From positions 1 through 14,407 of the IMG/VR virus record IMGVR_UViG_2778261641_000006: a DNA stretch of 14,407 nt; one strand, 5' to 3'. Made by a program: the position numbers and the translations under genes. Of the stretch, positions 1 to 13,637 are shown piece by piece (the stretch's first letter is position 1; the number at the start of each line of letters is the position of its first letter). A model generated the notes under the pieces. The model saw only the letters and a program-made list of their open reading frames with translations, made no database searches and was not told the origin of the DNA. Source of the DNA: a virus (lineage: Duplodnaviria; Heunggongvirae; Uroviricota; Caudoviricetes).

Positions 1-101
1 ACAGTCGCCTAAACATAATCTGTCGCGAGTGCCGGAAGAGCGAAGTTATGCAGCGCATATTGTCGTTTTATCAGGGGAATTTTCAGGAGGTGGTGCTGTG
101 A
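1..101 (+). CDS. Possible 3' end of an upstream gene running off the left edge (partial)
   Basis: Frame 3 is open from the window start to TGA at 99-101 and contains a CxxC motif (ICRECRK). The stop abuts GTG at 102. Frame 2 is also open from position 2 to a stop at 182-184, so the assignment is ambiguous. Confidence 0.2.
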   Translation, partial: SRLNIICRECRKSEVMQRILSFYQGNFQEVVL

Positions 102-158
102 GTGAAATTAGCTATCAGGCTTCAATTGCCGCTGGCATTCGCATCAAAGGAGAGGAGC

Positions 159-515
159 ATGGAAATAAAACCAGAAGATGAGTTAAGTAATATTGTTTTA
201 TTTCCGGTAAAAGAGGATGACCCACGTAATCAGGTTAATTTTCTTTATGAGCCATCGGAAAGACCATACTGCCATCACGCTTCTGTCCGGGTTGACGAAA
301 AAGAGCGTCAGGTCCGCTGTAAAAACTGCGGTGCAGTTGTGGAGCCGTTTGACTGGATGCTCTCAGTGGCGAAAAGAGAAACCAGACTGGCAGATGATGT
401 AAGGCTATTGCGCCAGGAGGAACAGGAAAGGCGGAAAAATATAGAAAAGTTAATTCAGATTGAGCGTAACGCGAAAGCGCGGATACGCAGAGCGACAAAA
501 TCCAGAACTGAATAA
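159..515 (+). CDS. Hypothetical phage protein with a Cys/His cluster (possible zinc ribbon) and a basic, coiled-coil-like C-terminus
   Basis: ORF-track frame 102..515. ATG at 159 is preceded by AAGGAGAGGAG 6-9 nt upstream; GTG at 102 is an alternative start. Motif CHH-x16-CxxC, followed by a K/R/E-rich tail. I recognise no homolog. Confidence 0.5.
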   Translation: MEIKPEDELSNIVLFPVKEDDPRNQVNFLYEPSERPYCHHASVRVDEKERQVRCKNCGAVVEPFDWMLSVAKRETRLADDVRLLRQEEQERRKNIEKLIQIERNAKARIRRATKSRTE

Positions 516-585
516 TTAAATTTAGTAGTGTTAAAAATTTAATCCTTAACCGGAGGGATTTCTGCACCCTCAGAACATCAGGAGG

Positions 586-601
586 CCGCCCGAAAGGGCG
601 G
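586..601 (+). promoter_or_regulatory. Stable hairpin (CCGCCC-GAAA-GGGCGG) between the SD-like AGGAGG (580-585) and the start codon of the next gene
   Basis: Perfect 6-bp GC stem with a GNRA tetraloop, seen directly. No U-tract follows, so it is not a classical terminator. If folded, the SD-to-ATG(609) distance drops from 23 nt to about 7 nt. Confidence 0.35.
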
Positions 602-608
602 TAATGAA

Positions 609-791
609 ATGCGAAAGTTCAAAATAATTATTGAAACGGGAATAGCTGGTGGAGATTTTGAGGATGTATTCGAAGTGGACGATGACGCAACACCTGATGA
701 AATTCATGATGAAGCAAAAGAAATTTTCTTTAACTACTGCAATTACTCATATCACGCAATAAAAGACGAAGAGGAAGAACAAAATGGCTGA
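609..791 (+). CDS. Small, highly acidic hypothetical protein (60 aa)
   Basis: ORF track. About 18 D/E versus 5 K/R in 60 residues. The stop overlaps the start of the next gene by 8 nt. Confidence 0.5.
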   Translation: MRKFKIIIETGIAGGDFEDVFEVDDDATPDEIHDEAKEIFFNYCNYSYHAIKDEEEEQNG

Positions 792-960
792 TTTTGGTTC
801 AACTAAATACAACGTCAGTTTTGAAGAATGGCATGAACTGTTAATGGACTATGCAGAGTTACGTGGTGGAAGTGCTGCTGATGCTGAAGCCTGGCGTGAT
901 GACTACGAAGCAGGAAAAACACCTGTCGAAGCATATTGTGATGAGTGGGGCGATGAATGA
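784..960 (+). CDS. Small acidic hypothetical protein (58 aa; below the ORF-track length cutoff)
   Basis: Translated by hand: ATG 784 to TGA 958-960, MADFGSTKYNVSFEEWHELLMDYAELRGGSAADAEAWRDDYEAGKTPVEAYCDEWGDE. GAGGAAG lies 7-8 nt upstream. The start overlaps the previous stop, and the stop overlaps the next ATG (ATGA at 957-960). Confidence 0.4.
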   Translation: MADFGSTKYNVSFEEWHELLMDYAELRGGSAADAEAWRDDYEAGKTPVEAYCDEWGDE

Positions 961-1472
961 GCGAGATTAATTATCAGGAAGGGCATGAAACGGTAGGGCA
1001 GGCAAAACCAGTTGCATGGCGATATCGCTATGTGAAAAAAAGCGTTACGGACTTTCAGGAGAAGATGTGGGTTGGTGACTGGAAATATGTACCGACAAAA
1101 GAGGATTGCAACGACAGGCCGAGCTATGAGATTCAGGCCTTATTCACTGCCCCGCCAGTCCCGGTGACATCAGAAGGACTGGTTAAAGCCGTGCGCTTTT
1201 ATGAACAGGTAAAGCGTGAAAATCCGCCAGCCGAAACAGGATCATGGAAAGATGCTGTTGATTGGGTACTCAAAGAGGCCTGCTGTGCTGCCATTCTGGG
1301 TAAAGCTGACAATCCACTAGCATCCAGTAATCAGGTTAGCGAATTAACAATGTGGGTTAAACGACTGGTCAGTCAACTGAAAAAAGCTCAGCCGGACTGC
1401 AAATTACCGGAGAAGGCGATGGATTACCTGAAACGAAATGGACTGATAAGCGTGGAGGATGTTTTAAGATGA
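957..1472 (+). CDS. Hypothetical phage protein (171 aa)
   Basis: ORF track; coupled to the flanking genes through ATGA overlaps at both ends. No motif I recognise. Confidence 0.55.
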   Translation: MSEINYQEGHETVGQAKPVAWRYRYVKKSVTDFQEKMWVGDWKYVPTKEDCNDRPSYEIQALFTAPPVPVTSEGLVKAVRFYEQVKRENPPAETGSWKDAVDWVLKEACCAAILGKADNPLASSNQVSELTMWVKRLVSQLKKAQPDCKLPEKAMDYLKRNGLISVEDVLR

Positions 1473-1552
1473 CCTGGTCTGAAGCATTCACAACGGTAGG
1501 AATCGCACTGGCGGTGGCGCTGGTGGTGTATTCGATTTGCCGCTGGGGATAA
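1469..1552 (+). CDS. Putative 27-aa hydrophobic peptide (MTWSEAFTTVGIALAVALVVYSICRWG)
   Basis: Hand-translated. ATG 1469 overlaps the TGA of the previous gene (ATGA). Single predicted transmembrane segment. Very short, so it could be spurious. Confidence 0.25.
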   Translation: MTWSEAFTTVGIALAVALVVYSICRWG

Positions 1553-1558
1553 AAACGG

Positions 1559-1586
1559 TTTGCGGGAAAAGGAGAGTTAAGTAGAA
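1559..1586 (+). promoter_or_regulatory. Candidate sigma70 promoter for the hok mRNA (TTGCGG -16 nt- TAGAAT)
   Basis: Hexamers read directly. A start near 1593 and the terminator-like hairpin at 1990-2007 would give a transcript of about 415 nt, which fits known hok mRNAs of roughly 400 nt. Confidence 0.3.
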
Positions 1587-1763
1587 TTGCAGCGGGTGCT
1601 TGAGGCTATCTGTCTCAGGCATGAACACCAAAAGGCAGATAGAGAAAAGCCCCAGTTAACATTACGCGTCCGGCAAGACGCTTAACATTAATCTGAGGCT
1701 CAATCTATGAACGGCAAATCTAGGTTAGCCTCTTACGTGCCGAAAGGCAAGGAGAAGCAGGCT

Positions 1764-1919
1764 ATGAAGCAGCAAAAGGCGATGTTAGTCGCCCTGATCG
1801 TCATCTGTATTACCGTCATTGTGACGGCACTGGTAACGAGGAAAGACCTCTGCGAGGTACGAATCCGAACCGGCCAGACGGAGGTCGCTGTCTTCACAGC
1901 TTACGAACCTGAGGAGTAA
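1764..1919 (+). CDS. hokD: Hok/Gef-family type I toxin (small membrane toxin, 51 aa)
   Basis: MKQQKAMLVALIVICITVIVTALVTRKDLCEVRIRTGQTEVAVFTAYEPEE is near-identical to my recollection of E. coli HokD (RelF) and close to HokC (Gef). GGAG lies 8 nt upstream of ATG 1764. The in-frame upstream ATG at 1707 gives the 70-aa ORF in the track, possibly a mok-like leader reading frame. Confidence 0.85.
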   Translation: MKQQKAMLVALIVICITVIVTALVTRKDLCEVRIRTGQTEVAVFTAYEPEE

Positions 1920-1926
1920 GAGACCT

Positions 1927-1948
1927 GGCGGGGGAGAAATCCCTCGCC
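1927..1948 (+). promoter_or_regulatory. 8-bp GC-rich hairpin just 3' of hok (GGCGGGGG-AGAAAT-CCCTCGCC), possibly an mRNA folding or stability element
   Basis: Inverted repeat read directly, with one G-U pair. No U-tract follows. Hok mRNAs are known to carry 3' fold-back elements, but the assignment here is inference. Confidence 0.3.
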
Positions 1949-1989
1949 ACCTCTGATGTGTCAGGCATCCTCAACGCACCCGCACTTAA

Positions 1990-2007
1990 CCCGCTTCGGC
2001 GTTTTTT
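1990..2007 (+). terminator. Weak rho-independent terminator (CGC-UUCG-GCG then T6) at the end of the hok transcript
   Basis: 3-bp stem with a UUCG tetraloop followed by TTTTTT. It shares the 13-mer ACCCGCTTCGGCG with the stronger terminator at 2655-2679. Confidence 0.4.
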
Positions 2008-2062
2008 CCGTTGATTAACTCTAGTTATTAGAGAACCGAACTTTTATTGATGGGGCAGGGAG

Positions 2063-2455
2063 ATGAAGAAACTTGTTTTAGTCGCAGGTGTAATGATTGC
2101 AACAGTAATGTTGGGAGGGTGTGCAGCAAAGGTCGATCCAGCGTTGAAAGCAGAAGCAATGAAGCCACTAACATGTAATGATGAAAAGCAATGTGACTTT
2201 TATTGGAAACGAGCGCAATTCTGGTTGGCTAATAATTCCTCATGGAAAATTCAAACGGCGACAGACACGCTAATTTCCACTTATAATCCCTCTCCAAATA
2301 GTCCATTCCTCGCTTATCAAGTGAGTAAAATGCCAAATGAAGATGGATCCTCAAGAATTTTCATCAAGCCTTTTTGCGATAATATGTTTGGCTGTCAACC
2401 AAACCCCTATCAGGCAGTTGTTTCCTTTAAAAACTTCGTTAAAACAGGGCAGTAG
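2063..2455 (+). CDS. Putative lipoprotein (moron), 130 aa
   Basis: N-terminal signal peptide with lipobox LGGC (Cys20); four more Cys in the mature part; AGGGAG as RBS. Not Bor by sequence comparison from memory. Flanked by terminator-like hairpins on both sides. Confidence 0.7.
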   Translation: MKKLVLVAGVMIATVMLGGCAAKVDPALKAEAMKPLTCNDEKQCDFYWKRAQFWLANNSSWKIQTATDTLISTYNPSPNSPFLAYQVSKMPNEDGSSRIFIKPFCDNMFGCQPNPYQAVVSFKNFVKTGQ

Positions 2456-2654
2456 TGTATAGCTTGGACGATAAATTATTAGTGAAAACGCCGTAAACCC
2501 TCACCCAATGTGGACTAAGTCTATCAAACATGACTGTGATGATTAGTCCGTAGTTGTTGCCTATGAAATCTGGATTGAGTCAGGGTTTAATCCAATAATT
2601 ATTCTATCGTTCCTTTACAAGTCCGGTATATTACTTTCAGTTTGTTTTAGCATA

Positions 2655-2679
2655 CCCGCTTCGGCGGGTTTTGTTTTTT
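2655..2679 (+). terminator. Rho-independent terminator (CCCGC-TTCG-GCGGG then TTTTGTTTTTT)
   Basis: 5-bp GC stem, UUCG tetraloop and a long T-tract, read directly. Confidence 0.6.
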
Positions 2680-2751
2680 CCTGGCATTCTGGTTTACAAT
2701 TCGCACGCCAGCCTGAACAACTGGCACCTGCTGCGCCAGCAGAGACAACCG

Positions 2752-3030
2752 ATGGCGCACGATACCAAATTACACAATTCTGATGATTCTGCCGTCTTTG
2801 CCAGCAGGCACGGGCGGCGTTCCCGCACTTTCAAATCTGACTGGTTCCAGCATGACCCATGTACTGAAGAACAGGCCGAATGGCTAATTCATAACTATCG
2901 CAGACGCGGATACGAGATTAAGAAAGCCCTCAGCCTCGATTATCGTCACTGGATAATCTATGTCAGGCTCCCTTATTCCGAACGCCCACCGCGCCCATCC
3001 CGCACATACCAGCAACGGATCTGGAGGTAA
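2752..3030 (+). CDS. Small basic hypothetical protein (92 aa), in the position Rem occupies in Qin
   Basis: The ORF-track entry begins at a TTG (2671) inside the terminator T-tract; the first ATG is at 2752. Stop TAA at 3028-3030 sits just before the GTG start of the next gene. Weak RBS. Confidence 0.4.
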   Translation: MAHDTKLHNSDDSAVFASRHGRRSRTFKSDWFQHDPCTEEQAEWLIHNYRRRGYEIKKALSLDYRHWIIYVRLPYSERPPRPSRTYQQRIWR

Positions 3031-3031
3031 C

Positions 3032-4090
3032 GTGCGGATATTACTTCGACCTGTTCTGGTACCGGAACTCGGGCTGGTGGTCCTTAGGCCGGGCCGTGAA
3101 TCCATGCAAGTATTTCATAACCCTCGAGTGCTGGTGGAGCCTGAACCGAAAAGCATGCGCGGTCTGCCGTCCGGAGTCGTCCCTGCCGTTCGCCAGCCGC
3201 TGGCGGAGGATAAATCATTACTGCCATTTTTCAGCGATGAGCGGGTGATTCGTGCTGCTGGCGGCGCTGGGGCACTGTCTGACTGGCTGTTGCGTCATGT
3301 CAAATCCTGCCAGTGGCCTCATGGTGACTATCATCACAGTGAAATCGTCATACATCGTTACGGTACCGGCGCGATGGTGTTGTGCTGGCACTGCGACAAC
3401 CAGTTGCGTGACCAGACATCCGAATCACTCGGGCAACTTGCTCATCAAAACCTGTCAGCATGGATGATTGACGTCATACGCCATGCAATGAATGGCACGC
3501 AGGAGCGGGAATTGTCGCTGGCTGAATTATCCTGGTGGGCGGTCTGCAATCAGGTGGCGGACGCGCTTCCGGAGGCAGTATTACGTCGTTCTCTGGGGTT
3601 ACGTGCGGAAAAAATCCGCTCCTTGTACCGCGAAAGCGACATCGTACCGGGAGAGCAGACCGCCACCAGCATACTGAAGCAGCGCACAAAAAATCTTGCG
3701 CCGTTGCCTCATGCCCACCAGCAACAGAACCCACCACAGGAAAAGACGGTGGTATGCATCACCGTTGATCCGGAGTCTCCGGCTCAGTATCTCCAGCGCC
3801 AGAAACCACAACGGGAAGAGATGCCTGTATACACGCGCTGGGTAAAAACGCAGAAATGCATGACGTGCGGTAATCAGGCAGATGATCCGCATCACATCAT
3901 TGGTCATGGACTGGGAGGGATGGGAACAAAGGCTGATGATTTGTTTGTTATTCCGCTGTGCCGTAAATGTCATAACGAACTGCACGCCGGGGTAAAAGAT
4001 TTTGAAGAAAAACACGGCAGCCAGCTGTTGTTGCTGATTCGTTTTTTAATGCACGCGAGAAATTCGGGTGTCCTGAAGTGGAAAGCATGA
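3032..4090 (+). CDS. DUF968/YdfU-like prophage protein with a C-terminal HNH-like Cys/His motif
   Basis: GTG at 3032 is in frame with the track ORF 2960..4090 and has GGAGGT 4 nt upstream. The resulting 352-aa product matches the size I recall for YdfU. C-terminal CMTCGN...HH...CRKCHNELH. Lies directly upstream of rusA, as in DLP12/Qin-type prophages. Confidence 0.65.
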   Translation: MRILLRPVLVPELGLVVLRPGRESMQVFHNPRVLVEPEPKSMRGLPSGVVPAVRQPLAEDKSLLPFFSDERVIRAAGGAGALSDWLLRHVKSCQWPHGDYHHSEIVIHRYGTGAMVLCWHCDNQLRDQTSESLGQLAHQNLSAWMIDVIRHAMNGTQERELSLAELSWWAVCNQVADALPEAVLRRSLGLRAEKIRSLYRESDIVPGEQTATSILKQRTKNLAPLPHAHQQQNPPQEKTVVCITVDPESPAQYLQRQKPQREEMPVYTRWVKTQKCMTCGNQADDPHHIIGHGLGGMGTKADDLFVIPLCRKCHNELHAGVKDFEEKHGSQLLLLIRFLMHARNSGVLKWKA

Positions 4091-4456
4091 ATGACTGAAC
4101 GCATAGAATTTGTTTTGCCTTACCCGCCGACGGTGAATACCTACTGGCGACGTCGTGGCAGCACATATTTTGTATCAAAAGCCGGCGAGCGTTATCGCCG
4201 TGATGTGGCGCTCATTGTTCGCCAGCAGCGGCTGAAATTAAACCTGCCCGGAAGGCTGGCGATAAAGGTGATTGCAGAGCCGCCGGATAAGCGCCGCCGG
4301 GACCTGGACAATATCCTGAAAGCACCACTGGATGCACTGACACATGCGGGGTTGCTTATCGACGACGAGCAGTTTGATGAAATCAATATTGTGCGCGGTC
4401 AGGTCGTTCCTGGTGGTCGGTTGGGGATAAAAATCACAGGGCTGGAGTGCGCATGA
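4091..4456 (+). CDS. rusA: RusA-family Holliday junction resolvase
   Basis: 121 aa; LPYPPTVNTYWR and RRRDLDNILKAPLDALTHAGLLIDDEQ align with E. coli RusA from memory. The start abuts the previous stop (TGAATG). Confidence 0.9.
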   Translation: MTERIEFVLPYPPTVNTYWRRRGSTYFVSKAGERYRRDVALIVRQQRLKLNLPGRLAIKVIAEPPDKRRRDLDNILKAPLDALTHAGLLIDDEQFDEINIVRGQVVPGGRLGIKITGLECA

Positions 4457-5142
4457 ATAACCAGTATTTACAGTTTGTGCGTGAACAGCTCATTATCGCC
4501 ACCGCCGATTTGAGTGGAGCAACAAAAGGTCAGCTTGAAGCCTGGCAGGAGAATGCCATGTTTGATACCGGGCGTTACAGGCGTAAAAAAATCCGGTACC
4601 GCGATGAAGTGACCGGAAAAATGATCACGCTGGATAATCCACCAATCCCGGGGAAACAATCGCTGGCAAAGAAGACGTCAATTCCTCTGGTAAGTCAGGT
4701 TGAGTTTTCGACATCATCATGGCGACGGGCGGTTCTGTCTCTTGAAGAACACCATAAAGCCTGGTTGCTGTGGTGTTACAGCGGCAGCATTTGCTGGGAA
4801 CACCAGATTGCGATAACACAGTGGGCGTGGAATGAATTTAACGCGCAATCTGGTACCAGAAAAATTGCGGAGAAAACACGGGAGCGCCTGAAAAAATTAA
4901 TCTGGCTGGCGGCACAGGATGTGAAGAGTGAGCTAGCTGGGCGTGAAACTTATGAATATCAGGAACTGGCATTACTGGCGGGAGTGACAACTAAAAACTG
5001 GTCCAAAACATTTACTGGTCACTGGGTTGCAATGAAACACATTTTCCACCGGCTGGATAGTGAGGCTTTATTGTTTGTGATGAGAACACGTTCAGAACAA
5101 AAGGCGGCATTTTCAAAGCAAAATGTTGCAAAAGTAGATTGA
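4453..5142 (+). CDS. Putative late-gene antiterminator Q (Qin QuuQ/Q82-like family)
   Basis: ATG 4453 overlaps the rusA stop (ATGA) and has GGAG 6 nt upstream; the track start at 4447 is a GTG. The function call rests on synteny (after rusA, before promoter/terminator and the lysis cassette) and size, not on recognised motifs. Confidence 0.55.
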   Translation: MNNQYLQFVREQLIIATADLSGATKGQLEAWQENAMFDTGRYRRKKIRYRDEVTGKMITLDNPPIPGKQSLAKKTSIPLVSQVEFSTSSWRRAVLSLEEHHKAWLLWCYSGSICWEHQIAITQWAWNEFNAQSGTRKIAEKTRERLKKLIWLAAQDVKSELAGRETYEYQELALLAGVTTKNWSKTFTGHWVAMKHIFHRLDSEALLFVMRTRSEQKAAFSKQNVAKVD

Positions 5143-5154
5143 AAGGCATATATT
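5126..5154 (+). promoter_or_regulatory. Candidate late promoter PR' (TTGCAA -17 nt- TATATT) overlapping the 3' end of the Q-like gene
   Basis: Hexamers and spacing read directly. A terminator follows about 50 nt downstream, the arrangement expected for a Q-modified PR'/tR' unit. Confidence 0.35.
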
Positions 5155-5207
5155 TCATGCAAATCTGATATTTTGCCGATTTTGTACGTGATGGCAAAAG
5201 CAAACAA

Positions 5208-5231
5208 AACCCGCCCACAAGCGGGTTTTTT
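5208..5231 (+). terminator. Rho-independent terminator (AACCCGC-CCACAA-GCGGGTT then T-tract); candidate tR'
   Basis: 7-bp stem with a T-tract, read directly. Confidence 0.6.
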
Positions 5232-5298
5232 GTGCCACTTATCTCGGATAGACATGGTGAATGCGCTAGTGGAGGAGATAAGGGTGATTTTTGAATGC

Positions 5299-5327
5299 TT
5301 GCAACATTGATTTCGTAACGTTATTAT
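5299..5327 (+). promoter_or_regulatory. Candidate sigma70 promoter for the tRNA cluster (TTGCAA -17 nt- TATTAT)
   Basis: Read directly. The predicted start at about 5334-5336 lies immediately 5' of the first tRNA (5337). Confidence 0.45.
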
Positions 5328-5336
5328 CCTGCGCCC

Positions 5337-5412
5337 GGCCCTTTAGCTCAGTGGTGAGAGCGAGCGACTCATAATCGCCAGGTCGCTGGTTCAAATCCAG
5401 CAAGGGCCACCA
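5337..5412 (+). tRNA. tRNA with anticodon CAT (Ile2/lysidine-type or Met; resembles E. coli ileX and prophage ileZ)
   Basis: Cloverleaf folded by hand: acceptor GGCCCTT/AAGGGCC, D-arm GCTC..GAGC, anticodon loop CTCATAA, T-loop TTCAAAT, 3' ACCA. Confidence 0.8.
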
Positions 5413-5413
5413 G

Positions 5414-5490
5414 CCGCCACTAGCTCATCAGGAAAGAGCGTCAACCCTTTAAGTTGAGTGTGCGAGGTTCGAGTCCCCGGTGGCGGTCCA
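5414..5490 (+). tRNA. Non-canonical tRNA-like gene, UUU-type (Lys-like) anticodon in a loop reading CCTTTAA (C at position 33)
   Basis: Acceptor CCGCCAC/GTGGCGG, discriminator T, CCA encoded; 9-nt D-loop; anticodon stem TCAAC/GTTGA; T-loop TTCGAGT with an A-C mismatch in the T-stem. Could be functional, a pseudo-tRNA, or mis-folded by hand. Confidence 0.45.
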
Positions 5491-5492
5491 GT

Positions 5493-5568
<76 letters not shown>

Positions 5569-5571
5569 TAT

Positions 5572-5646
<75 letters not shown>

Positions 5647-5652
5647 GTTAGA

Positions 5653-5698
5653 GTCTTTCAGTCTGCGATGATGGGAAATCCCGGAGTGACTGAAAGAC
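5653..5698. repeat. Perfect 11-bp inverted repeat (GTCTTTCAGTC / GACTGAAAGAC) with an inner GGG-AAAT-CCC mini-hairpin, just 3' of tRNA-Gly
   Basis: Read directly; 24-nt spacer. Possible RNA processing or structural element. Confidence 0.5.
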
Positions 5699-5705
5699 GT
5701 TTAAG

Positions 5706-5778
5706 TTATGAATGATCGCCTTTTTTTGCAAAATTGCTGTGCAGAAATACTAACCTTCGAGCAGGCGATCATTCATAA
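5706..5778. repeat. Perfect 15-bp inverted repeat (TTATGAATGATCGCC / GGCGATCATTCATAA) around a 43-nt spacer that holds a promoter-like TTGCAA -16 nt- TACTAA
   Basis: Read directly. The left arm is followed by T7. The embedded -35/-10-like hexamers are at 5726-5731 and 5748-5753. Confidence 0.5.
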
Positions 5779-5854
5779 GCACTCTGCTTTTATTCCGATT
5801 AACTGTGGGTGGTTTGTTGGATAGAGTGCTTTCCTTTCTGTATATATCGTTTCG

Positions 5855-5878
5855 CCCGCTTTTGCGGGTTTTTCTTTT
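5855..5878 (+). terminator. Rho-independent terminator (CCCGC-TTTT-GCGGG then TTTTTCTTTT) upstream of the lysis cassette
   Basis: Read directly; lies about 60 nt upstream of the holin start. Confidence 0.6.
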
Positions 5879-5938
5879 CAAATCCCTTTCATTTCTCAGT
5901 GTAAAACTACGCCATCCGTTATTTGCGGAGGTGAGGCT

Positions 5939-6154
5939 ATGAAATCCATGGACAAAATTTCAACGGGCATTGCCTACGGCACCTCCGCAGGCAGTGCTGG
6001 CTACTGGTTTTTACAGTGGCTTGATCAGGTCAGTCCTTCACAGTGGGCTGCGATTGGTGTACTGGGGAGTCTGGTTCTGGGCTTCCTGACTTATCTGACA
6101 AATCTGTACTTCAAAATCAGAGAAGACAAGCGTAAGGCTGCACGGGGAGAGTAA
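5939..6154 (+). CDS. S: Class II pinholin, phage 21 S21-type, with dual-start motif (antiholin from M1, holin from M4)
   Basis: [71 protein letters not shown] matches my recollection of S21 (S2171/S2168) and Qin EssQ. RBS GGAGGTGAGG. Confidence 0.85.
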
Positions 6155-6158
6155 TTCA

Positions 6159-6473
6159 ATGACTCAAAACTATGAACTGATTGTGAAAGGGATCCGCAAT
6201 TTTGAGAATAAAGTTACGGTAACTTTAGCGTTACGGGACAAAAAACGCTTTGACGGTGAAATTTTTGACCTGGACATCTCGCTGGACCGTGTTGAAGGTG
6301 CCGCGCTGGAGTTTTATGAAGCAGCAGCCAGAAGGAGCATCAGACAGGTCTTCCTGGATGTTGCTGCCGGGTTATGTGAAGGGGACGAGCTGTTGCCAGA
6401 AACGCGCCCCTGTTCAGAGGCGCGGTATACCATAAAAATTAACAGTTCTGATAACTCGATTACAGGTTGTTAG
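6159..6473 (+). CDS. Hypothetical protein between holin and endolysin (YdfR/DUF1327-like by position and size)
   Basis: 104-aa ORF in the same slot as ydfR (103 aa) between essQ and rrrQ in Qin. The family assignment is from synteny and memory, not motifs. Confidence 0.55.
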   Translation: MTQNYELIVKGIRNFENKVTVTLALRDKKRFDGEIFDLDISLDRVEGAALEFYEAAARRSIRQVFLDVAAGLCEGDELLPETRPCSEARYTIKINSSDNSITGC

Positions 6474-6528
6474 CTTTTTGCAGTTGGCTTTCCAGTATCT
6501 TTCATTGGTAGCATCCTGATAAATATCC

Positions 6529-7062
6529 ATGAGCGCAAAAATCAAATACGGCCTGTCAGCTGCTGTTCTGGCGCTGATTGCTGCAGGCGCGTCTGCTCCT
6601 CAAATACTTGACCAGTTTCTGGATGAAAAAGAGGGTAACCACACTACGGCATACCGCGATGGTTCCGGCATATGGACCATCTGCCGCGGTGCAACGATGG
6701 TGGATGGTAAGCCAGTCGTACCAGGAATGAAACTGTCGAAGGAAAAATGCGCTCAGGTTAATGCCATTGAGCGTGATAAGGCGCTGGCATGGGTGGAGCG
6801 CAATATAAAAGTTCCACTGACCGAGCCACAGAAAGCCGGTATCGCATCATTCTGTCCCTATAACATTGGCCCCGGTAAGTGTTTCCCGTCGACGTTTTAT
6901 AAGCGGCTGAATGCCGGTGATCGTAAGGGCGCATGCGAGGCGATTCGCTGGTGGATAAAAGATGGTGGGCGCGATTGCCGCATACGTTCAAATAACTGCT
7001 ATGGACAGGTTATTCGTCGTGACCAGGAAAGCGCATTAGCCTGTTGGGGGATAGATCAGTGA
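6529..7062 (+). CDS. R: SAR endolysin (T4-lysozyme-like muramidase, GH24; RrrQ/R21-type)
   Basis: 177 aa. N-terminal signal-anchor-release segment ([20 protein letters not shown]), then an E...D...T catalytic arrangement (EKEGN / YRDGSG / WTICRG). Pairs functionally with a pinholin. Confidence 0.85.
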
Positions 7063-7523
7063 GCAGAGTCGCCGCGATTATTTATGCTCTGGTTATTTGC
7101 ATCATCGTCTGCCTGTTGTGGGCGGTCAATCATTACCGTGATAACGCCATCGCCTACAAAGAACAGCGTGATAAAAAAGTCAGTGAGCTGAAGCAGGCGA
7201 TCGCCACCATCGCTGACATGCAGCAGCGTCAGCGTGATGTTGCTGCGCTCGATGCAAAGTACTCGAGAGAATTAGCCAATGCGAAAGCTGAAAATGAAAC
7301 TCTGCGCGCTGATGTTGCCGCTGGTCGTCGTCGGTTGCACATCAAAGCAGTCTGTCAGTCAGTGCGTGAAGCCACCACCGCCTCCGGCGTGGATAATGCA
7401 ACCAGCCCCCGACTGGCAGACACCGCTGAACGGGATTATTTCACCCTCAGAGAGCGGCTGATGACGATGCAGATGCAACTGGAAGGGGCACAGGAGTATA
7501 TCCGCACTCAGTGCATTAAGTAG
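7059..7523 (+). CDS. Rz: Rz (i-spanin)
   Basis: From GTG 7059 the product [31 protein letters not shown]... is very close to lambda Rz from memory. GGGGGA lies about 9 nt upstream. The track start at 7044 is a TTG. Confidence 0.85.
7279..7461 (+). CDS. Rz1: Rz1 (o-spanin lipoprotein), embedded in the +1 frame of Rz
   Basis: [42 protein letters not shown]... has the lipobox VVGC and proline-rich region, near-identical to lambda Rz1 from memory. Confidence 0.85.
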
Positions 7524-7565
7524 CCTTTTTATCGTGGTAAACATTTCGCAGGGTATGAGGTATTT

Positions 7566-7916
7566 ATGCCATCACGAATCCCACGCGCCTGCCGTAAGCG
7601 TGGATGTGCAGGTACAACCACAGACAGTTCTGGTTACTGCGATAAACATCGTGGCGAAGGATGGGTACAGCATCAACGCGGACTGAGCCGCCACCAGCGT
7701 GGCTATGGCTCGAAATGGGATGCCATACGTGCGCGCATACTGAAGCGTGATAATCATCTGTGTCAGAACTGCCTGCGCAATGGGAGAGCCGTTGAAGCTA
7801 GAACTGTGGACCACATCATTCCGAAAGCTCATGGTGGCACGGATGCAGACAGTAACCTGCAGAGTCTGTGCTGGCCCTGTCATAAAGCAAAAACAGCGCG
7901 CGAACGCATCAATTGA
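7566..7916 (+). CDS. HNH endonuclease, terminase-associated (HK97 gp74-like)
   Basis: N-terminal Cys cluster and C-terminal HNH motif (DHIIPKAHGG...NLQSLCWPCHKAK). Sits directly upstream of the small terminase, as in HK97-like phages. Confidence 0.85.
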   Translation: MPSRIPRACRKRGCAGTTTDSSGYCDKHRGEGWVQHQRGLSRHQRGYGSKWDAIRARILKRDNHLCQNCLRNGRAVEARTVDHIIPKAHGGTDADSNLQSLCWPCHKAKTARERIN

Positions 7917-8063
7917 TAACAGTTCCCATCTGTAGGGGAGGGGCGGGTCAAATCTCTGCAACCCTGGCTGCTCAGTACCGCCGCCTGACCCTTCCTCACA
8001 TCGCCGCAGGTTCGAAAACTTTTTTTTGGAATGTGATTGAATGATTGATAGGTAAAACCGATT
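7917..8063. other. Candidate cos/packaging-signal region between the HNH gene and terS
   Basis: Position only: in HK97 the cohesive-end site lies between the HNH gene and terS. Contains an imperfect inverted repeat (GGGCGGGTCA ... TGACCCTTCC) and a T8 run. The exact cos site is not identified. Confidence 0.25.
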
Positions 8064-8546
8064 ATGTCAGGACCCCCGAAAACCCCGCCACGCCTGCATT
8101 TGATACGAGGCAACCCCTCAAAGCGCCCCGTTAAAGACCCCAAAAAAACCGCTAAAAAGGATGAAAAAGGTCTCCCTAAAATTCCGCAACATTTAGGGGC
8201 ACAGGGGAAGTACTGGTTCAGGCGAATGGCGGAAGAGCTGAATGCGGAAGGGATCATTTCTCAGCTTGATGCGCGTGCACTCGAGTTGCTGGTGGAAGCC
8301 TACACCGAATATCGGCATCACTGCGAAACACTGGATGTTGAGGGGTATACCTACCGCACGGAAACGCAGAGCGGTGATGTACTGATTAAGGCGCACCCCG
8401 CGGCGGCAATGAAAGCGGATGCCTGGAAGCGGATCCGGGCAATGCTTGCAGAGTTTGGTATGTCACCGGCAAGCCGGGCTAAAGTAAATATCGCCGGACC
8501 GGATGATGTTGATCCGCTGGCGGAGCTTTTAAAAGCGAGAGACTGA
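8064..8546 (+). CDS. Terminase small subunit (P27/HK97-type)
   Basis: 160 aa with a basic N-terminus; position and size fit TerS. Stop overlaps the terL start (TGATG). Confidence 0.8.
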   Translation: MSGPPKTPPRLHLIRGNPSKRPVKDPKKTAKKDEKGLPKIPQHLGAQGKYWFRRMAEELNAEGIISQLDARALELLVEAYTEYRHHCETLDVEGYTYRTETQSGDVLIKAHPAAAMKADAWKRIRAMLAEFGMSPASRAKVNIAGPDDVDPLAELLKARD

Positions 8547-10303
8547 TGGCAAAAGTGGCTGACGGGATCCGCTACGCCGAACGTGTTGTTGCAGGAGAAA
8601 TTGTTGCTGGCGAATTTGTCCGCCTGGCCTGCCAGCGTTTTCTTGATGATCTGAAGTTCGGCGAAGAGCGGGGGATTTATTTCAGTGAACCCCGTGCGCA
8701 GCACATCCTGAATTTCTACAAATTTGTACCTCATGTAAAAGGGGCGCTAGCAGGCCAGCCCATTGACTTGATGGACTGGCATGTATTTATCCTCATTAAT
8801 ATTTTTGGTTTTGTCATTCCGCTGGTCAATGAAGAGACCGGGGAAGTTGTCATGCGCAGCGATGGCAGCGGACGTCCGGTGATGGTGCGCCGGTTCCGGA
8901 CGGCGTACAACGAAGTCGCCCGTAAAAACGCAAAATCAACTCTGTCATCGGGTATCGGCCTGTATATGACGGGGGCAGATGGTGAAGGCGGAGCTGAGGT
9001 GTATTCAGCCGCAACCACGCGTGACCAGGCCAGAATCGTGTTTGAAGACGCCAAAAATATGGTAAGAAAAGCCCGGTCGACACTCGGGCGGTTGTTTGAT
9101 TTCAACAAGCTGGCGATTTACCAGGAGCAGAGCGCATCAAAATTTGAACCGCTTTCTTCGGATGCAAACAACCTGGATGGTCTGAACATCCACTGCGCCA
9201 TTATTGATGAGCTGCATGCACATAAAACACGTGACGTGTGGGACGTTCTGGAAACGGCAACCGGTGCCCGTCTGCAGTCCCTTTTATTTGGTATCACCAC
9301 GGCAGGGTTTAACAAGGAAGGGATTTGTTACGAGCAGCGTGATTACGCCATCAAGGTATTGCGTGGCTATAACAGCGACGTGGAGGGCGCGGTAAAAGAC
9401 GACTCCTACTTTGCGATTATTTACACCCTCGATGAGGGAGATGATCCGTTTGATGAAACGGTCTGGCAGAAAGCGAATCCCGGCCTGGGCATCTGTAAAC
9501 GCTGGGATGATCTGCGTCGCCTGGCGAAAAAAGCGAAAGAACAGGTCTCTGCGCGGGTGAATTTTTTTACCAAACACATGAATGTGTGGGTAACAGCAGA
9601 GTCTGCCTGGATGGACATGATTAAGTGGGAGAAGTGCGAATACATTGCCCCACGACATGAGCTGAAAACGTATCCCATGTGGGTCGGCGTTGACCTTGCT
9701 CATAAGATTGATATCTGTGCGGCGGCAAAACTCTGGCGAACGGATAACGGGCATGTTCATGCCGATTTTAAATTCTGGCTTCCGGAAGGACGGCTGGAAC
9801 GATGCTCGCGGCAGCAGGCAGAACTTTACCGGAAGTGGGCGGAGATGGATAAGCTGATTCTGACGGATGGTGATGTTATCGATCATGCTCAGATAAAAAG
9901 TGACTTACTGGAATGGATTGGTGGTGAAAACCTCAGGGAACTGGGATTTGACCCGTGGAGCGCGATGCAGTTCAGCCTGGCACTGGCTGAAGAAGGGATA
10001 CCGCTGGTGGAGGTTCCGCAGACGGTTCGCAATCTGTCAGAGGCCATGAAGGAAACGGAATCACTGGTCTATGCCGGGCGTTTCCATCACAGCAATCATC
10101 CGGTCATGAACTGGATGATGTCTAACGTTACGGTAAAACCGGACAAAAACGACAATATCTTCCCGAATAAATCCACGCTGGAAGCCAAAATCGACGGCCC
10201 TGTTGCGATGTTTACAGCAATGAGCCGGATGCTGGTCAATGGTGGTGAACCGGAGCTGGATCTGTCTGAACATCTGGTCAGCGTGGGCATCCGCTCGCTT
10301 TAA
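8546..10303 (+). CDS. Terminase large subunit (HK97 Terminase_1 family)
   Basis: 585 aa. An N-terminal ATPase region with a Walker A-like GADGEGG segment and a Walker B-like IIDE segment, followed by a C-terminal nuclease region; typical length and position. Confidence 0.9.
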
Positions 10304-10314
10304 CCGAGGTCATT

Positions 10315-10497
10315 ATGTTTCTGATAATTCTCGCGCCACTGGTGGGCGTGCTGGGTGCGCTTTTGCTGGCGTATGGTGCCTGGCTGATTTATCCCCCGGC
10401 GGGTTTTGTTGTTGCCGGGGTGCTGTGCCTGTTCTGGTCGTGGCTGGTGGCGCGATATCTCGACCGTACACAGCCGTCTGTCGGCGGAGGTAAATAG
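10315..10497 (+). CDS. Small predicted 2-TM membrane protein (60 aa) inserted between terL and portal
   Basis: ORF track. GAGG 5 nt upstream of ATG. Two hydrophobic segments. Its stop overlaps the portal GTG. Canonical HK97-type modules have no gene here. Confidence 0.45.
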
Positions 10498-11738
10498 TGT
10501 TCTTTTCGGGATTATTTCAACGAAAAAGTGACGCACCGGTGACCACGCCAGCAGAGCTGGCGGATGCTATCGGGTTGTCCTACGACACCTATACCGGAAA
10601 GCAGATCAGCAGCCAGCGGGCCATGCGACTGACGGCGGTTTTTTCCTGTGTCAGGGTGCTGGCGGAGTCGGTCGGGATGTTGCCCTGCAACCTGTATCAC
10701 CTGAACGGCAGCCTGAAGCAGAGAGCCACTGGCGAACGTCTGCATAAGCTGATCTCCACGCATCCCAATGGCTATATGACGCCGCAGGAGTTCTGGGAGC
10801 TGGTGGTCACCTGTCTGTGCCTGCGGGGAAACTTTTACGCCTACAAAGTGAAAGCATTTGGCGAAGTGGCTGAACTGCTGCCCGTCGATCCCGGCTGTGT
10901 GGTACCGAAGCTTAACAGTAGCTGGGAGCCGGTCTATCAGGTCACATTCCCGGATGGCTCCACGGATGTACTGAGCCAGGAGGATATCTGGCATGTGCGC
11001 ACGCTGACGCTGGACGGACTGGTGGGGCTGAATCCCATCGCCTATGCCCGCGAGGCAATATCGCTGGCGGCAGCGACCGAAGAGCACGGGGCCAGACTGT
11101 TCAGCAATGGCGCGGTGACGTCGGGTGTGTTGCGTACAGAGCAGACGCTGTCAGATCAGGCTTATGAGCGCCTGAAGAAAGATTTTGAGGAGCGTCACAC
11201 CGGGCTTGGCAATGCTCACCGCCCGATGATCCTTGAGATGGGGCTGGACTGGAAGTCGATGGCGCTGAACGCCGAGGACAGCCAGTTCCTGGAAACCCGC
11301 AAGTTTCAGCTTGAAGAAATCTGTCGTCTGTTCCGGGTGCCGTTGCACATGGTGCAGAACACCGATCGCGCCACCTTCAACAATATCGAAGAGCTGGGGC
11401 TGGGATTTATCAACTATTCACTGGTGCCGTATCTGACCCGCATCGAACAGCGGATCAACACCGGACTGGTACGAAAAAGTAAGCAGGGCGTTTATTACGC
11501 CAAATTTAATGCCGGGGCGTTACTGCGCGGGGATATGAAGTCCCGTTTTGAAGCCTACGCCACCGGGATCAACTGGGGAATTTACTCTCCCAATGACTGC
11601 CGCGACCTGGAAGATATGAATCCGCGTCCCGGTGGTGATGTCTATCTCACACCGATGAACATGACCACGAAACCCTCCGATGGCAGTAAAGCCGGTAAGC
11701 AGAAGGATAACGCCAATGCAGACGAAACAACGTCTTGA
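10497..11738 (+). CDS. Portal protein (HK97 family)
   Basis: 413 aa; position after terL and composition fit portal. GTG start at 10497 with GGCGGAGG upstream. Confidence 0.85.
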   Translation: MFFSGLFQRKSDAPVTTPAELADAIGLSYDTYTGKQISSQRAMRLTAVFSCVRVLAESVGMLPCNLYHLNGSLKQRATGERLHKLISTHPNGYMTPQEFWELVVTCLCLRGNFYAYKVKAFGEVAELLPVDPGCVVPKLNSSWEPVYQVTFPDGSTDVLSQEDIWHVRTLTLDGLVGLNPIAYAREAISLAAATEEHGARLFSNGAVTSGVLRTEQTLSDQAYERLKKDFEERHTGLGNAHRPMILEMGLDWKSMALNAEDSQFLETRKFQLEEICRLFRVPLHMVQNTDRATFNNIEELGLGFINYSLVPYLTRIEQRINTGLVRKSKQGVYYAKFNAGALLRGDMKSRFEAYATGINWGIYSPNDCRDLEDMNPRPGGDVYLTPMNMTTKPSDGSKAGKQKDNANADETTS

Positions 11739-12366
11739 TGTACCGCTGAGTCTGAAATCTGTCAGTGACTCCGGTGAGTTTGAAGGGTATGGCTCCGTCT
11801 TTGGTGTAAAGGACAGCCACGATGATGTGGTGATGTCCGGGGCATTTGCTGCTTCCCTGCGGGCGTGGAGTGACAGAAAAGCGTTACCTGCGCTGCTCTG
11901 GCAGCACCGCATGGATGAACCCATCGGTGTTTACACCGAAATGAAGGAAGACGATGTCGGGCTTTACGTCAGGGGACGGTTGCTTATTGATGATGATCCC
12001 CTCGCAAAACGCGCACATGCACACATGAAGGCCGGTTCGTTAACCGGCCTTTCTATTGGGTACGTCCTGAAGGACTGGGAATACGACCGGAGCAAAGAAG
12101 CCTTTCTGCTGAAAGAAATCGACCTCTGGGAAGTCAGCCTGGTGACGTTCCCGTCTAACGACGAGGCGCGGATCAGCGACGTCAAGAACGCACTGGCCCG
12201 CGGGGAAATCCCCGAACAGAAAAAAATCGAAAGAGTCCTGCGTGATGTCGGACTCTCCCGTACCCAGGCCAAAGCATTCATGGCCGGGGGCTATGGCGCA
12301 CTGTCCCTGCGCGACGCTGAGGATGTGGGCTCTGCACTGAATGCACTGAAAAATCTGAACTTCTAA
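11716..12366 (+). CDS. Prohead maturation protease (HK97 gp4-like, S78 family)
   Basis: ATG 11716 has AAGGA 8 nt upstream; the in-frame ATG at 11680 is an alternative. Size and position between portal and capsid fit the HK97 protease. Confidence 0.85.
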   Translation: MQTKQRLDVPLSLKSVSDSGEFEGYGSVFGVKDSHDDVVMSGAFAASLRAWSDRKALPALLWQHRMDEPIGVYTEMKEDDVGLYVRGRLLIDDDPLAKRAHAHMKAGSLTGLSIGYVLKDWEYDRSKEAFLLKEIDLWEVSLVTFPSNDEARISDVKNALARGEIPEQKKIERVLRDVGLSRTQAKAFMAGGYGALSLRDAEDVGSALNALKNLNF

Positions 12367-12380
12367 TCAGGAGAAATACG

Positions 12381-13586
12381 ATGGCGGTTGATATTAAAGA
12401 TGTCGAACAGGTCGCGCAGGAGCTGCAGCAGAAGTTTGACGACTTCAAAGCAAAGAACGACAAGCGCGTGGATGCGATTGAGCAGGAAAAAGGCAAACTT
12501 GCCGGGCAGGTGGAAACCCTGAACGGGAAACTCAGCGAGCTGGAAAACCTCAAAAGCGATCTTGAAAAAGAGCTGCTTGAGCTGAAACGTCCGGCAGGTG
12601 GTGCGCAAAATAAACTGGCCACCGAGCATAAAGAAGCGTTTGTGGGCTTCCTGCGTAAAGGCCGTGAAGATGGTCTGCGCGATCTGGAGCGCAAGGCATT
12701 ACAGGTGGGCACCGATGAAGACGGCGGCTATGCCGTGCCGGAAGCACTGGATCGCAACATTCTCACCCTGCTGAAAGATGAAGTGGTGATGCGCCAGGAA
12801 GCCACGGTGATCAGCGTTGGTGGTTCCGACTACAAAAAACTGGTGAATCTGGGCGGCACGGCTTCCGGATGGGTTGGCGAGACTGACGCGCGCTCCCAGA
12901 CTGCCACCTCAAAACTGGGCCTGATTGAACCTTTCATGGGGGAAATCTACGGTAACCCGCAGGCCACCCAGAAAATGCTGGATGATGCCTTTTTCAACGT
13001 GGAAGCATGGATCAACAGCGAGCTGGCAACCGAATTTGCCGAACAGGAAGAAATTGCCTTTACCACCGGCGATGGTACCAAGAAGCCGAAAGGGTTCCTG
13101 GCGTATGAGTCCACGGATGAAACAGACAAGGTCCGGGCGTTCGGCAAACTTCAGCATATTGTATCCGGCGAAGCGACGGCGGTGACCGCAGATGCCATTA
13201 TCAAACTGATTTACACGCTGCGTAAGGCACACCGCACTGGCGCGAAGTTCATGATGAACAACAACAGTCTGTTTGCCATCCGTCTGCTGAAAGACAGTGA
13301 GGGTAACTATCTGTGGCGTCCGGGGCTGGAGCTGGGGCAGCCGTCCTCTCTGGCGGGTTACGCTATCGCTGAAAACGAACAGATGCCGGATATTGCCGCT
13401 GATGCGAAAGCCATTGCATTTGGTAACTTCAAACGGGGTTACACCATCGTTGACCGTATCGGTACCCGCATTCTGCGTGACCCGTACACCAATAAACCGT
13501 TTGTCGGTTTTTATACCACCAAGCGCACCGGCGGCATGCTGGTCGATTCGCAGGCCATCAAACTGCTGAAGATTGCAGCGGCGTAA
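12381..13586 (+). CDS. Major capsid protein, HK97 fold, with N-terminal coiled-coil delta (scaffolding) domain
   Basis: 401 aa. The first 100 or so residues are a K/E/L-rich coiled coil, followed by a conserved capsid body. RBS AGGAGA. Confidence 0.9.
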   Translation: MAVDIKDVEQVAQELQQKFDDFKAKNDKRVDAIEQEKGKLAGQVETLNGKLSELENLKSDLEKELLELKRPAGGAQNKLATEHKEAFVGFLRKGREDGLRDLERKALQVGTDEDGGYAVPEALDRNILTLLKDEVVMRQEATVISVGGSDYKKLVNLGGTASGWVGETDARSQTATSKLGLIEPFMGEIYGNPQATQKMLDDAFFNVEAWINSELATEFAEQEEIAFTTGDGTKKPKGFLAYESTDETDKVRAFGKLQHIVSGEATAVTADAIIKLIYTLRKAHRTGAKFMMNNNSLFAIRLLKDSEGNYLWRPGLELGQPSSLAGYAIAENEQMPDIAADAKAIAFGNFKRGYTIVDRIGTRILRDPYTNKPFVGFYTTKRTGGMLVDSQAIKLLKIAAA

Positions 13587-13593
13587 TCATTCA

Positions 13594-13622
13594 GGGGGCG
13601 CAGAAGTGCGCCCCCTGTTCTG
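13594..13622 (+). terminator. 9-bp GC hairpin (GGGGGCGCA-GAAG-TGCGCCCCC) after the capsid gene, with a weak T-tract; partial terminator or mRNA stabiliser
   Basis: Read directly. The downstream TGTTCTG is U-poor, so termination is probably leaky. Confidence 0.45.
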
Positions 13623-13637
13623 ACAGGTGAAAGAATC

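Follow-up and report, generated by a model that had tools for sequence, protein, structure and literature searches.

The lipoprotein cassette described here, which lies between the hok and rem genes of a prophage of Escherichia coli, is with strong support a genuine and cleanly delimited moron, consisting of 652 nucleotides (nt) of AT-rich DNA that comprise a leader, the gene for a lipoprotein of 130 amino acids (aa) and a tail of 198 nt. It is contained in a stretch of 14,407 nt from a virus of the class Caudoviricetes (IMG/VR record IMGVR_UViG_2778261641_000006, positions 1 to 14,407), which is referred to below as the window and which comes from a lambdoid, HK97-like E. coli prophage, also described as Qin/Rac-like. 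When all of its parts are taken together, we lean towards a reading in which this moron entered the terminator of hok through recombination between hairpins, is expressed by read-through, and encodes an outer-membrane lipoprotein with a likely role in the exclusion of other phages. Elements of this kind are well known and the architecture of the protein family is unremarkable; the main value of this one is in the clear mechanism of the insertion, in which the split hok terminator served as the recombination joint, and in a candidate for a new family of exclusion lipoproteins.

The cassette and the hokD terminator

The limits of the cassette are seen from a base-for-base alignment with the phage vB_EcoS-813R8, in which the same hok and rem flanks are present, no lipoprotein gene lies between them, and a single intact terminator (...GTAACCCGCTTCGGCGGGTTTTGTTTTTTCCTGGC...) is found at the junction. 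From this single terminator at the empty site it follows that the window holds a 665-bp insertion inside the hokD terminator. The 13-mer ACCCGCTTCGGCG occurs in exactly two copies in the window (1989-2001 and 2654-2666), a result with a chance expectation of 0.01 that was reached in none of 200 shuffled sequences, and because of this repeat the phase of the insertion boundary is arbitrary within these two segments. An earlier note, made from the letters of the window, had described the gene as bracketed by two related terminator hairpins with a common 13-mer, of which the upstream one is degenerate. The two exact copies of the 13-mer, together with a stem of only 3 bp upstream and of 6 bp downstream, agree with that description and the relation in sequence stands. 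However, the two hairpins are not independent terminators but, as read from the alignment, a single hokD terminator that was split and duplicated by the insertion. The downstream hairpin, with its GC-rich stem, UUCG loop and T-run, has a folding energy of -13.1 kcal/mol (z -3.2) and is the sole terminator-like site in a scan of positions 1400-3200. The upstream hairpin, which is short of 2-3 nt in its 3' arm and is followed by TTTTTT, reaches -3.9 kcal/mol, on par with shuffled sequences. The upstream hairpin is now a poor terminator, and it is the intact downstream hairpin which now terminates the unit.

In terms of the definition of morons given for the lambdoid phages HK97 and HK022 (PMC3594210), the cassette is absent from a close relative, viz. 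at the empty junction of vB_EcoS-813R8, and its base composition deviates from that of its surroundings (GC content of 0.39-0.41 over about 2001-2650 versus 0.52-0.57 in both flanks), which holds for every phage-borne homologue as well. It also has its own strong terminator (2654-2680), which in the E. coli copy is shared with or derived from that of hok. With the same gene found at many positions elsewhere, the assignment of the cassette as a moron in the earlier note is upheld; of the classic moron signature that it had invoked, the empty site, the GC content and the terminator are present, but an own promoter was not found in 1941-2075.

Of the 5426 complete E. coli genomes that were searched, 2487 have the empty junction and 255 carry the cassette, the latter always on a chromosome. 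Examples of lysogens with the cassette are E. coli 4/4 and APEC IMT5155. A comparison was made of 58 cassettes of the E. coli type, drawn from 54 IMG/VR contigs, two GenBank phages, chromosomal loci and the window. The insertion is at the same place in all 58, the crippled upstream hairpin is uniform in all of them except for the length of the T-run and one C/T change, and the downstream hairpin is intact throughout with small variations. The spacing of the 13-mer repeats is 665 bp in 41 loci and 664, 596 or 595 bp in the rest, the spacings of 595-596 bp corresponding to an allele without 68 nt of the 3' region. As the junctions are common to all of these copies, a single insertion event is indicated by the sequences, after which the cassette would have spread with the prophage module.

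The relatives of the lipoprotein gene in other genera are informative regarding the origin of the left junction. The hairpin in a Pantoea sp. prophage (L012) reads ACCCGCTTCGGCGGGTTTTTGCGTTG... and the gene there is preceded by ...ACCCGCTTCGGCGGGTTTTTGCGTTGCCCTTAAC...TGGGGATAGGGATATG, the gene in Enterobacter hormaechei (L006) is preceded by ...GCCCGCTTCGGTGGGTTTTGCCGTTAAC...GATGGGATATAAGGACATG, and the counterpart of these upstream regions in the window is ACCCGCTTCGGCG--TTTTTTCCGTTGATTAAC...GATGGGGCAGGGAGATG. In the alignment, the hairpin, the leader and the Shine-Dalgarno or ribosome-binding region make up one homologous unit in all three, and this unit follows three unrelated genes (viz. 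ant, the tape-measure gene and hok). Due to this homology at unrelated sites, the left junction in E. coli can be interpreted as the point where the hok terminator crossed over with the nearly identical hairpin that lay upstream in the cassette itself. At the right junction, where ...TTTTAGCAT is directly followed by ACCCGC..., the hok terminator is restored. To judge from these junctions, the cassette was joined to hok by terminator-to-terminator recombination rather than by transposition. The simplest route would be one crossover of the hok hairpin with a circular or tandem intermediate that carried a single copy of the hairpin, and such a crossover would leave an insert flanked by two hybrid hairpins and by direct repeats of their common sequence; we infer a step of this kind. 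One IMG/VR prophage (L049) carries a third copy of ACCCGCTTCGGCG at 5518, about 400 nt upstream of the hok-side copy, which hints at a recurrence of the hairpin at other module borders.

It is very improbable that the 13-bp direct repeats are instead a target-site duplication from the action of a transposase or integrase and that the cassette is a small non-autonomous mobile element. Such an origin would be in keeping with direct repeats that flank the insert exactly, with the RAST-style 'mobile element protein' labels under this region in phage records, and with the inverted repeat inside the cassette (2494-2509 / 2574-2589). However, the labelled 'mobile element' open reading frames (ORFs) are minus-strand ORFs of 37-52 aa which are found at the empty site too, and the homology of the upstream repeat and leader in other genera, at unrelated sites, implies that the repeat is a common sequence and not a duplication made by the insertion. 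Since the ends of the insert lack terminal inverted repeats, no transposase ORF is present in it, and a single site is used by all of the E. coli copies inspected, a transposable element or miniature inverted-repeat transposable element was ruled out as the identity of the cassette, and its origin by transposition is unlikely.

The DNA which follows the gene, about 200 nt and non-coding in the earlier note, measures 198 nt (2456-2653) and contains only ORFs shorter than 40 aa, of which the longest is a minus-strand ORF of 30 aa (2439-2531) that overlaps the end of the gene. As an orphan sequence, it is confined to the cassette of E. coli; the tail and the gene gave equal genome counts, 255 in each search. 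No Rfam family matched it, a distant phage search matched only two E. coli phages, no similarity was seen to the flanks of the homologues, and a tblastn comparison with the second lipoproteins of Pantoea prophages, in which a decayed second gene was sought, gave no similarity. The folding of the 3' region on the plus strand is no better than that of shuffled sequences (z -0.8); on the minus strand (2456-2682) the folding is better than in shuffled sequences (z -2.85). The shorter allele, from which 68 nt of the 3' region are gone, is seen in 13 loci and in the 606R7 allele. This indel polymorphism sits between the arms of the inverted repeat (the counterpart in L003 is at about 2395-2410), and in some loci the shorter 3' allele accompanies a gene allele of 97-98% identity; in others (L029, L048) the gene allele next to it is that of the window.

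The lipoprotein, its family and its relatives

The product of the gene starts with MKKLVLVAGVMIATVMLGGC... and has the features on which the earlier note had based its identification as a lipoprotein, viz. MKK, a hydrophobic core and the lipobox L-G-G-C, with the signal peptide at residues 1-19, the lipobox cysteine at position 20 (codon 2120-2122) and five cysteines in all (positions 20, 38, 44, 105 and 111). The lipobox conforms to the pattern [LVI][ASTVIG][GAS]C, and those of relatives read, e.g., LSGC, LAGC, LVGC and LTAC. Export by Sec and lipidation at Cys20 are predicted from these features. Under the established Lol rule of E. coli, Ala at position +2 directs a lipoprotein to the outer membrane, and sorting of the product to the outer membrane is predicted from its Ala at +2, which is not the Asp retention signal. 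In an alignment of 45 divergent short members of the family, the lipobox cysteine, Cys38, Cys44 and Cys105 are invariant and Cys111 is nearly so (at least 90%), forming two C-x5-C motifs that probably correspond to two local disulfides.

The ratio of nonsynonymous to synonymous substitution rates (dN/dS) is 0.12-0.19 between the window copy and two other E. coli alleles and about 0.1 in comparison with the Enterobacter copy; between those two other alleles, which are close to each other, it is 0.34, a value that rests on only 14 differences. With this pair excepted, the overall range is 0.07-0.19 where synonymous sites are unsaturated, saturation being present in most of the more distant comparisons. 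In all 54 viral contigs of the E. coli type, residues 1-130 of the query are matched with 95-100% identity. On these substitution patterns, the ORF is judged to be a real gene under purifying selection. In E. coli TW10573 (L005 1735-2948), IS1203 is inserted in the 5' end of the lipoprotein gene and an annotated ORF of 115 aa is left; a frameshifted copy (P0012) was also found.

The homology and structure searches which the earlier note had called for were run, and gave no Pfam, NCBIfam, PADLOC or PDB sequence match and a generic helix-grip model. No meaningful match was obtained in Pfam or NCBIfam by protein or profile search, PADLOC gave 0 families at E<=1, and no relative was found by a PDB sequence search. 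Its statement that the protein is not Bor is likewise supported, as there is no Pfam Lambda_Bor match at E<=0.1. In PHROGs the protein matches phrog_16082 and, weakly, phrog_4186, both of unknown function. A profile search of 1.84 billion cluster representatives (50% identity) gave 1141 matches at E<=1e-3 and 532 at E<=1e-10, and by this measure the lipoprotein belongs to a large unannotated and unnamed family of at least 1141 clusters at 50% identity, whose members are all named 'hypothetical' or 'prophage protein' in their sources. About 13% of the top profile matches are longer than 200 aa, and among 40 members scanned for domains, 12 of the 19 long ones carry a C-terminal PDZ domain of the DegP type. 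In P0034, P0079, P0103, P0114 and other members of about 230 aa, the PDZ domain (DegP/HtrA-type) follows the lipoprotein domain, an architecture without a curated family name. In the 90%-identity cluster of P0013, to which the window lipoprotein belongs, many Hok toxin sequences are lumped with it under a partial representative of 87 aa, which is apparently a clustering artefact, and the size and names of that cluster are uninformative.

The AlphaFold2 model is confident for residues 22-130, with a mean predicted local distance difference test score of 84, and consists in order of a helix, a strand, a long helix, a four-stranded antiparallel sheet and a C-terminal helix. The predicted fold is a small helix-grip (alpha+beta) binding domain of roughly 105 residues. 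Its structural matches (score in brackets) are to Flpp3 / DUF3568 (9.0), KA1 domains (8.4-8.5), the N-domain of BamC (8.1) and Bet v 1 / SRPBCC proteins (6-7), all at 13% identity or less, and a Foldseek search of the PDB and of the viral BFVD library gave nothing at E<=1e-3. The helix-grip fold as modelled is a generic one, from which no function can be assigned.

Close relatives of the lipoprotein, 66-85% identical, occur as morons at different positions in other lambdoid prophages. In the E. hormaechei prophage the gene lies between the tape-measure gene and that for gpM, and in Phytobacter diazotrophicus it has the same position in a decayed prophage remnant. In this remnant (L010 6001-7342) only a gpM fragment is found nearby and the chromosomal genes cls, tonB and ompW surround it, which suggests that the copy has been retained by the host. 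The gene is located between gpM and gpL in the metagenomic contig L080, between gpI and gpJ in Pantoea ananatis (L009), and in a moron island just upstream of gpI-gpJ in prophages of the Pantoea type (L012, L067). In the latter two a second lipoprotein gene is next (L012 6374-6721, L067 6374-6784), overlapping the stop codon of the first (TGATATG); these second genes are unrelated to each other and to the family of the window lipoprotein, and neither has a Pfam match. The copies of L072 (Yersinia), L073 and L078 are in early or immunity regions, those of Yersinia and another lambdoid prophage being beside parDE and sieB or near the repressor, and a member with 31% identity is found in a phiJL001-like phage (L075), with the tail chaperone genes on one side of it and the tape-measure gene on the other. 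Every phage-borne copy has a GC content below that of its flanks. A GC-rich hairpin comes after each copy whose downstream sequence was read (that of L067 and L073 was not inspected), except in L012, where the second gene follows directly, and a T-run comes after all of these hairpins except that of Yersinia L072. The more distant members are isolated chromosomal genes, and it appears that a protein of the cellular envelope has been taken up by phages on repeated occasions. Among 50,697 GenBank phage records, just 2 have a gene for the lipoprotein.

Expression and role of the lipoprotein

The hok locus into which the cassette is inserted is of the complete hok/mok/sok type (1581-1983), and its ORF is labelled hokD or 'host killer protein' in matching records. 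The sequence GCGGGTGC at 1592 is complementary to GCACCCGC at 1976, and this pairing, as read by eye, extends further with one bulge. The roles of the tac and fold-back inhibitory (fbi) elements are presumably those established in work on hok of plasmid R1, under which 1967-1983 would match the fold-back inhibitory element. The insertion starts 5 nt past this putative fbi element. With the moron at this distance from the 3' element and the hok terminator weakened, the 3' end of the type I toxin transcript of hok is probably altered by the insertion as well, and the 3'-end formation and processing of hok mRNA, and the regulation of hok, may be changed in all carrier prophages. The prophage small RNA svsR was considered in this connection and set aside, as it belongs to a different locus at the 3' end of cI.

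A search of 1941-2075 for sigma-70-like promoters, by a tool and by our own scan (at least 8 of 12 matches, spacers of 15-19), gave none, though a weak or non-sigma-70 promoter may escape consensus scans of this kind. A sigma-E-like promoter (GAACTT in the leader) was dropped on inspection by eye, as its spacing would put the start inside the ORF. Promoter candidates are present in relatives, viz. TGgTATGAT in L080 and TTGCCG-15-TAGGAT in L006. As no promoter was found in the leader and all of the E. coli copies have the crippled form of the upstream hairpin, it is likely, on the evidence of these sequences, that expression takes place mainly by read-through from the hok promoter. In a lysogen the lipoprotein gene would then be transcribed from the constitutive hok promoter, and during lytic growth by polymerase modified by Q.

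With regard to its role, the lipoprotein would bind a component of the envelope on the periplasmic side of the outer membrane and in this manner protect the lysogen from the entry of other phages, i.e. superinfection exclusion at the receptor or at the tail-tip/DNA-ejection step. Cor (of phi80, N15 and HK022) and Llp (of T5) are outer-membrane lipoproteins which block FhuA for superinfection exclusion; the T5 llp gene adjoins the gene for its receptor-binding protein, and cor adjoins tail-fibre genes. Gene 15 of HK97, the original moron, is a superinfection-exclusion gene beside the tape-measure gene (PMC3594210). Of about eight distinct insertion points in phages, five are in the tail-tip module, for which the chance is about 3% (our own binomial estimate, assuming uniform insertion and a module of about a quarter of the genome). 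Because of this placement and the precedents of T5 llp, cor and HK97 gp15, exclusion at the level of the envelope is plausible and, at a probability short of even, the single most likely role of the lipoprotein in our analysis, with a role in host fitness or envelope homeostasis about as likely. For exclusion or surface modification, the roles which the earlier note had put forward, the sole support is circumstantial, viz. the repeated placement among tail-tip genes in other phages.

A number of observations weigh against the reading which we prefer. The donor of the cassette was not found (a protein scan of genome contigs confirmed no relative, the one match to a 20-mer of the 3' region fell by chance within a coding sequence unrelated to it, and the distant phage search returned only the two E. 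coli phages), so that the single-crossover model stays a proposal, and outside E. coli no copy with hairpins on both sides was seen. The leader may hold a weak or non-sigma-70 promoter. Concerning the role in exclusion, the protein has no match in PADLOC and no similarity to Cor, Llp or Bor; its generic fold also matches ligand-binding Bet v 1/SRPBCC proteins; the insertion contexts that were sampled are limited in number and not independent of each other; and morons are in general readily tolerated in tail operons. Further, many members are ordinary chromosomal genes whose GC content is matched to that of their surroundings (L074, L079, L081), and these, together with the long members that carry PDZ domains (12/19), point to a housekeeping role in the envelope, which phages may exploit for something other than exclusion.

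It is thus possible, though we would not call it probable, that the structure of the moron is as described above and that the lipoprotein is a host-fitness factor, i.e. a Bet v 1-like periplasmic binder of a hydrophobic ligand or an envelope protein, with possible roles in stress tolerance, in serum or antimicrobial resistance or in the modulation of envelope proteases. The chromosomal homologues in non-phage contexts, the fusion of some members to DegP-type PDZ domains, the copy kept in the decayed Phytobacter remnant and the fold matches to Flpp3 and BamC are all in its favour, as is the precedent of Bor, a lambda lipoprotein that acts in serum resistance (work cited in PMC3594210). However, it leaves the repeated tail-tip placement unexplained, and the mature protein of about 105 residues is smaller than typical START/Bet v 1 domains. 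An improbable account is that the ORF is a decaying passenger without current function in E. coli and that only the disruption of the hok terminator matters, e.g. for the 3' processing or activation of hok mRNA. While the position of the insertion 5 nt after the putative fbi, the weakened hok terminator, the lack of a promoter in 1941-2075 and the interrupted or shortened copies (IS1203 in TW10573, the frameshifted P0012) would agree with such decay, the complete copies that were examined have all 130 codons of the ORF intact (54/54 viral contigs), all of the functional residues are conserved, and the dN/dS values given above (0.12-0.19 against the two E. coli alleles, 0.34 between those two, about 0.1 against Enterobacter) speak against it. 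A more far-reaching proposal, which we hold to be doubtful, is that the lipoprotein is the first recognised member of a large family of disulfide-locked helix-grip outer-membrane lipoproteins (at least 1100 clusters at 50% identity, some with PDZ fusions) that temperate phages have repeatedly captured and placed beside tail-tip genes and that constitutes a new class of exclusion proteins, blocking the receptor or the tail-tip/DNA-ejection step from the periplasmic side, and that hairpins of the ACCCGC-UUCG-GCGGGU type are portable recombination joints by which the cassette passes from one phage genome to another.

If the preferred reading is correct in that the lipoprotein excludes phages, a new and widespread lipoprotein family would join the few factors that exclude phages at the level of the envelope (Cor, Llp, HK97 gp15, SieA), and its presence in about 5% of complete E. 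coli genomes would be relevant to host range in phage therapy. Irrespective of its function, the cassette is a clean natural example of the movement of a moron in which two near-identical terminator hairpins served as the joint and a split terminator was left behind, and this hairpin joint shows in concrete terms how the 'boundary sequence' idea of lambdoid mosaicism can work.

Setting of the cassette and comparison with known systems

The features of the window are listed in Table 1. The local gene order is hok - cassette - rem - ydfU - rusA - Q, and the closest GenBank phage is vB_EcoS-689R5, with 99.7% identity across 1600-3100. The set of tRNA genes located between Q and the lysis genes varies among related prophages (Ile, Lys and Thr in L004; Met, Thr and Gly in L001), and the lysis cassette includes a DUF1327 gene (6159-6473) between the genes for the P21-type holin and the lysozyme.

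Table 1. Positions of the cassette, its parts and the other features of the window
Feature	Position	Strand	Remarks
TAGAAT, -10-like hexamer	1581-1586		Just before the 5' element
5' tac-like element GCGGGTGCTTGAGG	1592-1605		mRNA 5' end
Rfam sok match	1594-1769
mok/hok reading frame, Hok/Gef toxin	1707-1919	+	Pfam HOK_GEF, E 1.5e-23; gene whose terminator took the insertion
Putative fbi (fold-back) element CCTCAACGCACCCGC	1967-1983	+	Complementary to 1592-1605; 5 nt upstream of first 13-mer; left intact by insertion
Upstream crippled hairpin, ACCCGCTTCGGCG then TTTTTT	1989-2007	+	Hybrid left junction: 5' part of hokD terminator and 3' side of cassette's own upstream hairpin
Insertion, 665 bp relative to empty site (652 nt of new DNA and one 13-nt repeat)	2002-2666	+	Alignment with empty-site phage vB_EcoS-813R8
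Cassette leader and ribosome-binding region	2008-2062	+	Alignment with Pantoea and Enterobacter leaders
Lipoprotein gene	2063-2455	+
Non-coding 3' region, 198 nt	2456-2653	+
Inverted repeat, arms 2494-2509 and 2574-2589	2494-2589	not assigned	Around the 68-nt segment missing from second cassette allele
Intact Rho-independent terminator, ACCCGC-TTCG-GCGGGT then TTTTGTTTTTT	2654-2680	+	Right junction; runs on into native hokD-rem spacer
rem-like ORF	2752-3030
ydfU (DUF968)	2960-4090
rusA	4091-4456
Q antiterminator	4447-5142
Four tRNA genes (Met-CAT, Lys-TTT, Thr-TGT, Gly-TCC)	5337-5646		Between Q gene and lysis cassette
P21-type holin, DUF1327, lysozyme, Rz	5939-7523
Terminase small and large subunits	8064-10303
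Portal	10497-11738
Prohead protease	11680-12366
Major capsid protein	12381-13586

Among the proteins with which the lipoprotein can be compared, Flpp3 (DUF3568) of Francisella and the N-terminal helix-grip domain of BamC are similarly from lipoproteins of Gram-negative envelopes. However, the identity to them is 11-13%, the window lipoprotein has no membership in Pfam (DUF3568) or NCBIfam, its two C-x5-C motifs are specific to its own family, and neither Flpp3 nor BamC has a defined biochemical function that could be transferred. Bor/Iss, the serum-resistance protein of lambda, is likewise a prophage-borne outer-membrane lipoprotein moron in E. coli, but the window lipoprotein gives no match to Pfam Lambda_Bor and differs from it in length, cysteine pattern and genome position. 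With Cor and Llp there is a likeness in that all are small phage lipoproteins with a Sec/lipobox signal and conserved cysteines, and relatives often lie by receptor-binding or tail-tip genes. However, the sole match to a Cor PHROG (phrog_1119, E 0.0071) covers residues 1-44 only, i.e. the region of the signal peptide and not the full length, the search of PDB sequences was empty and neither protein is among the top structural matches, no similarity in sequence or fold to the solved Llp of T5 is seen, and the window lipoprotein is about 50 residues longer.

The closest parallel in organization is provided by the morons of the HK97/HK022 type (HK97 gene 15, lambda bor, lom), which similarly are extra segments with deviating GC content, absent from close relatives, and contain a single small gene with its own terminator, tolerated within operons through late antitermination. 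As with HK97 gene 15, the family of the window lipoprotein is also found beside the tape-measure gene in the tail operon of other phages. The E. coli cassette differs from these morons in that it has no recognisable promoter of its own and in that it lies inside the terminator of a type I toxin gene, where its boundary is a reused terminator hairpin.

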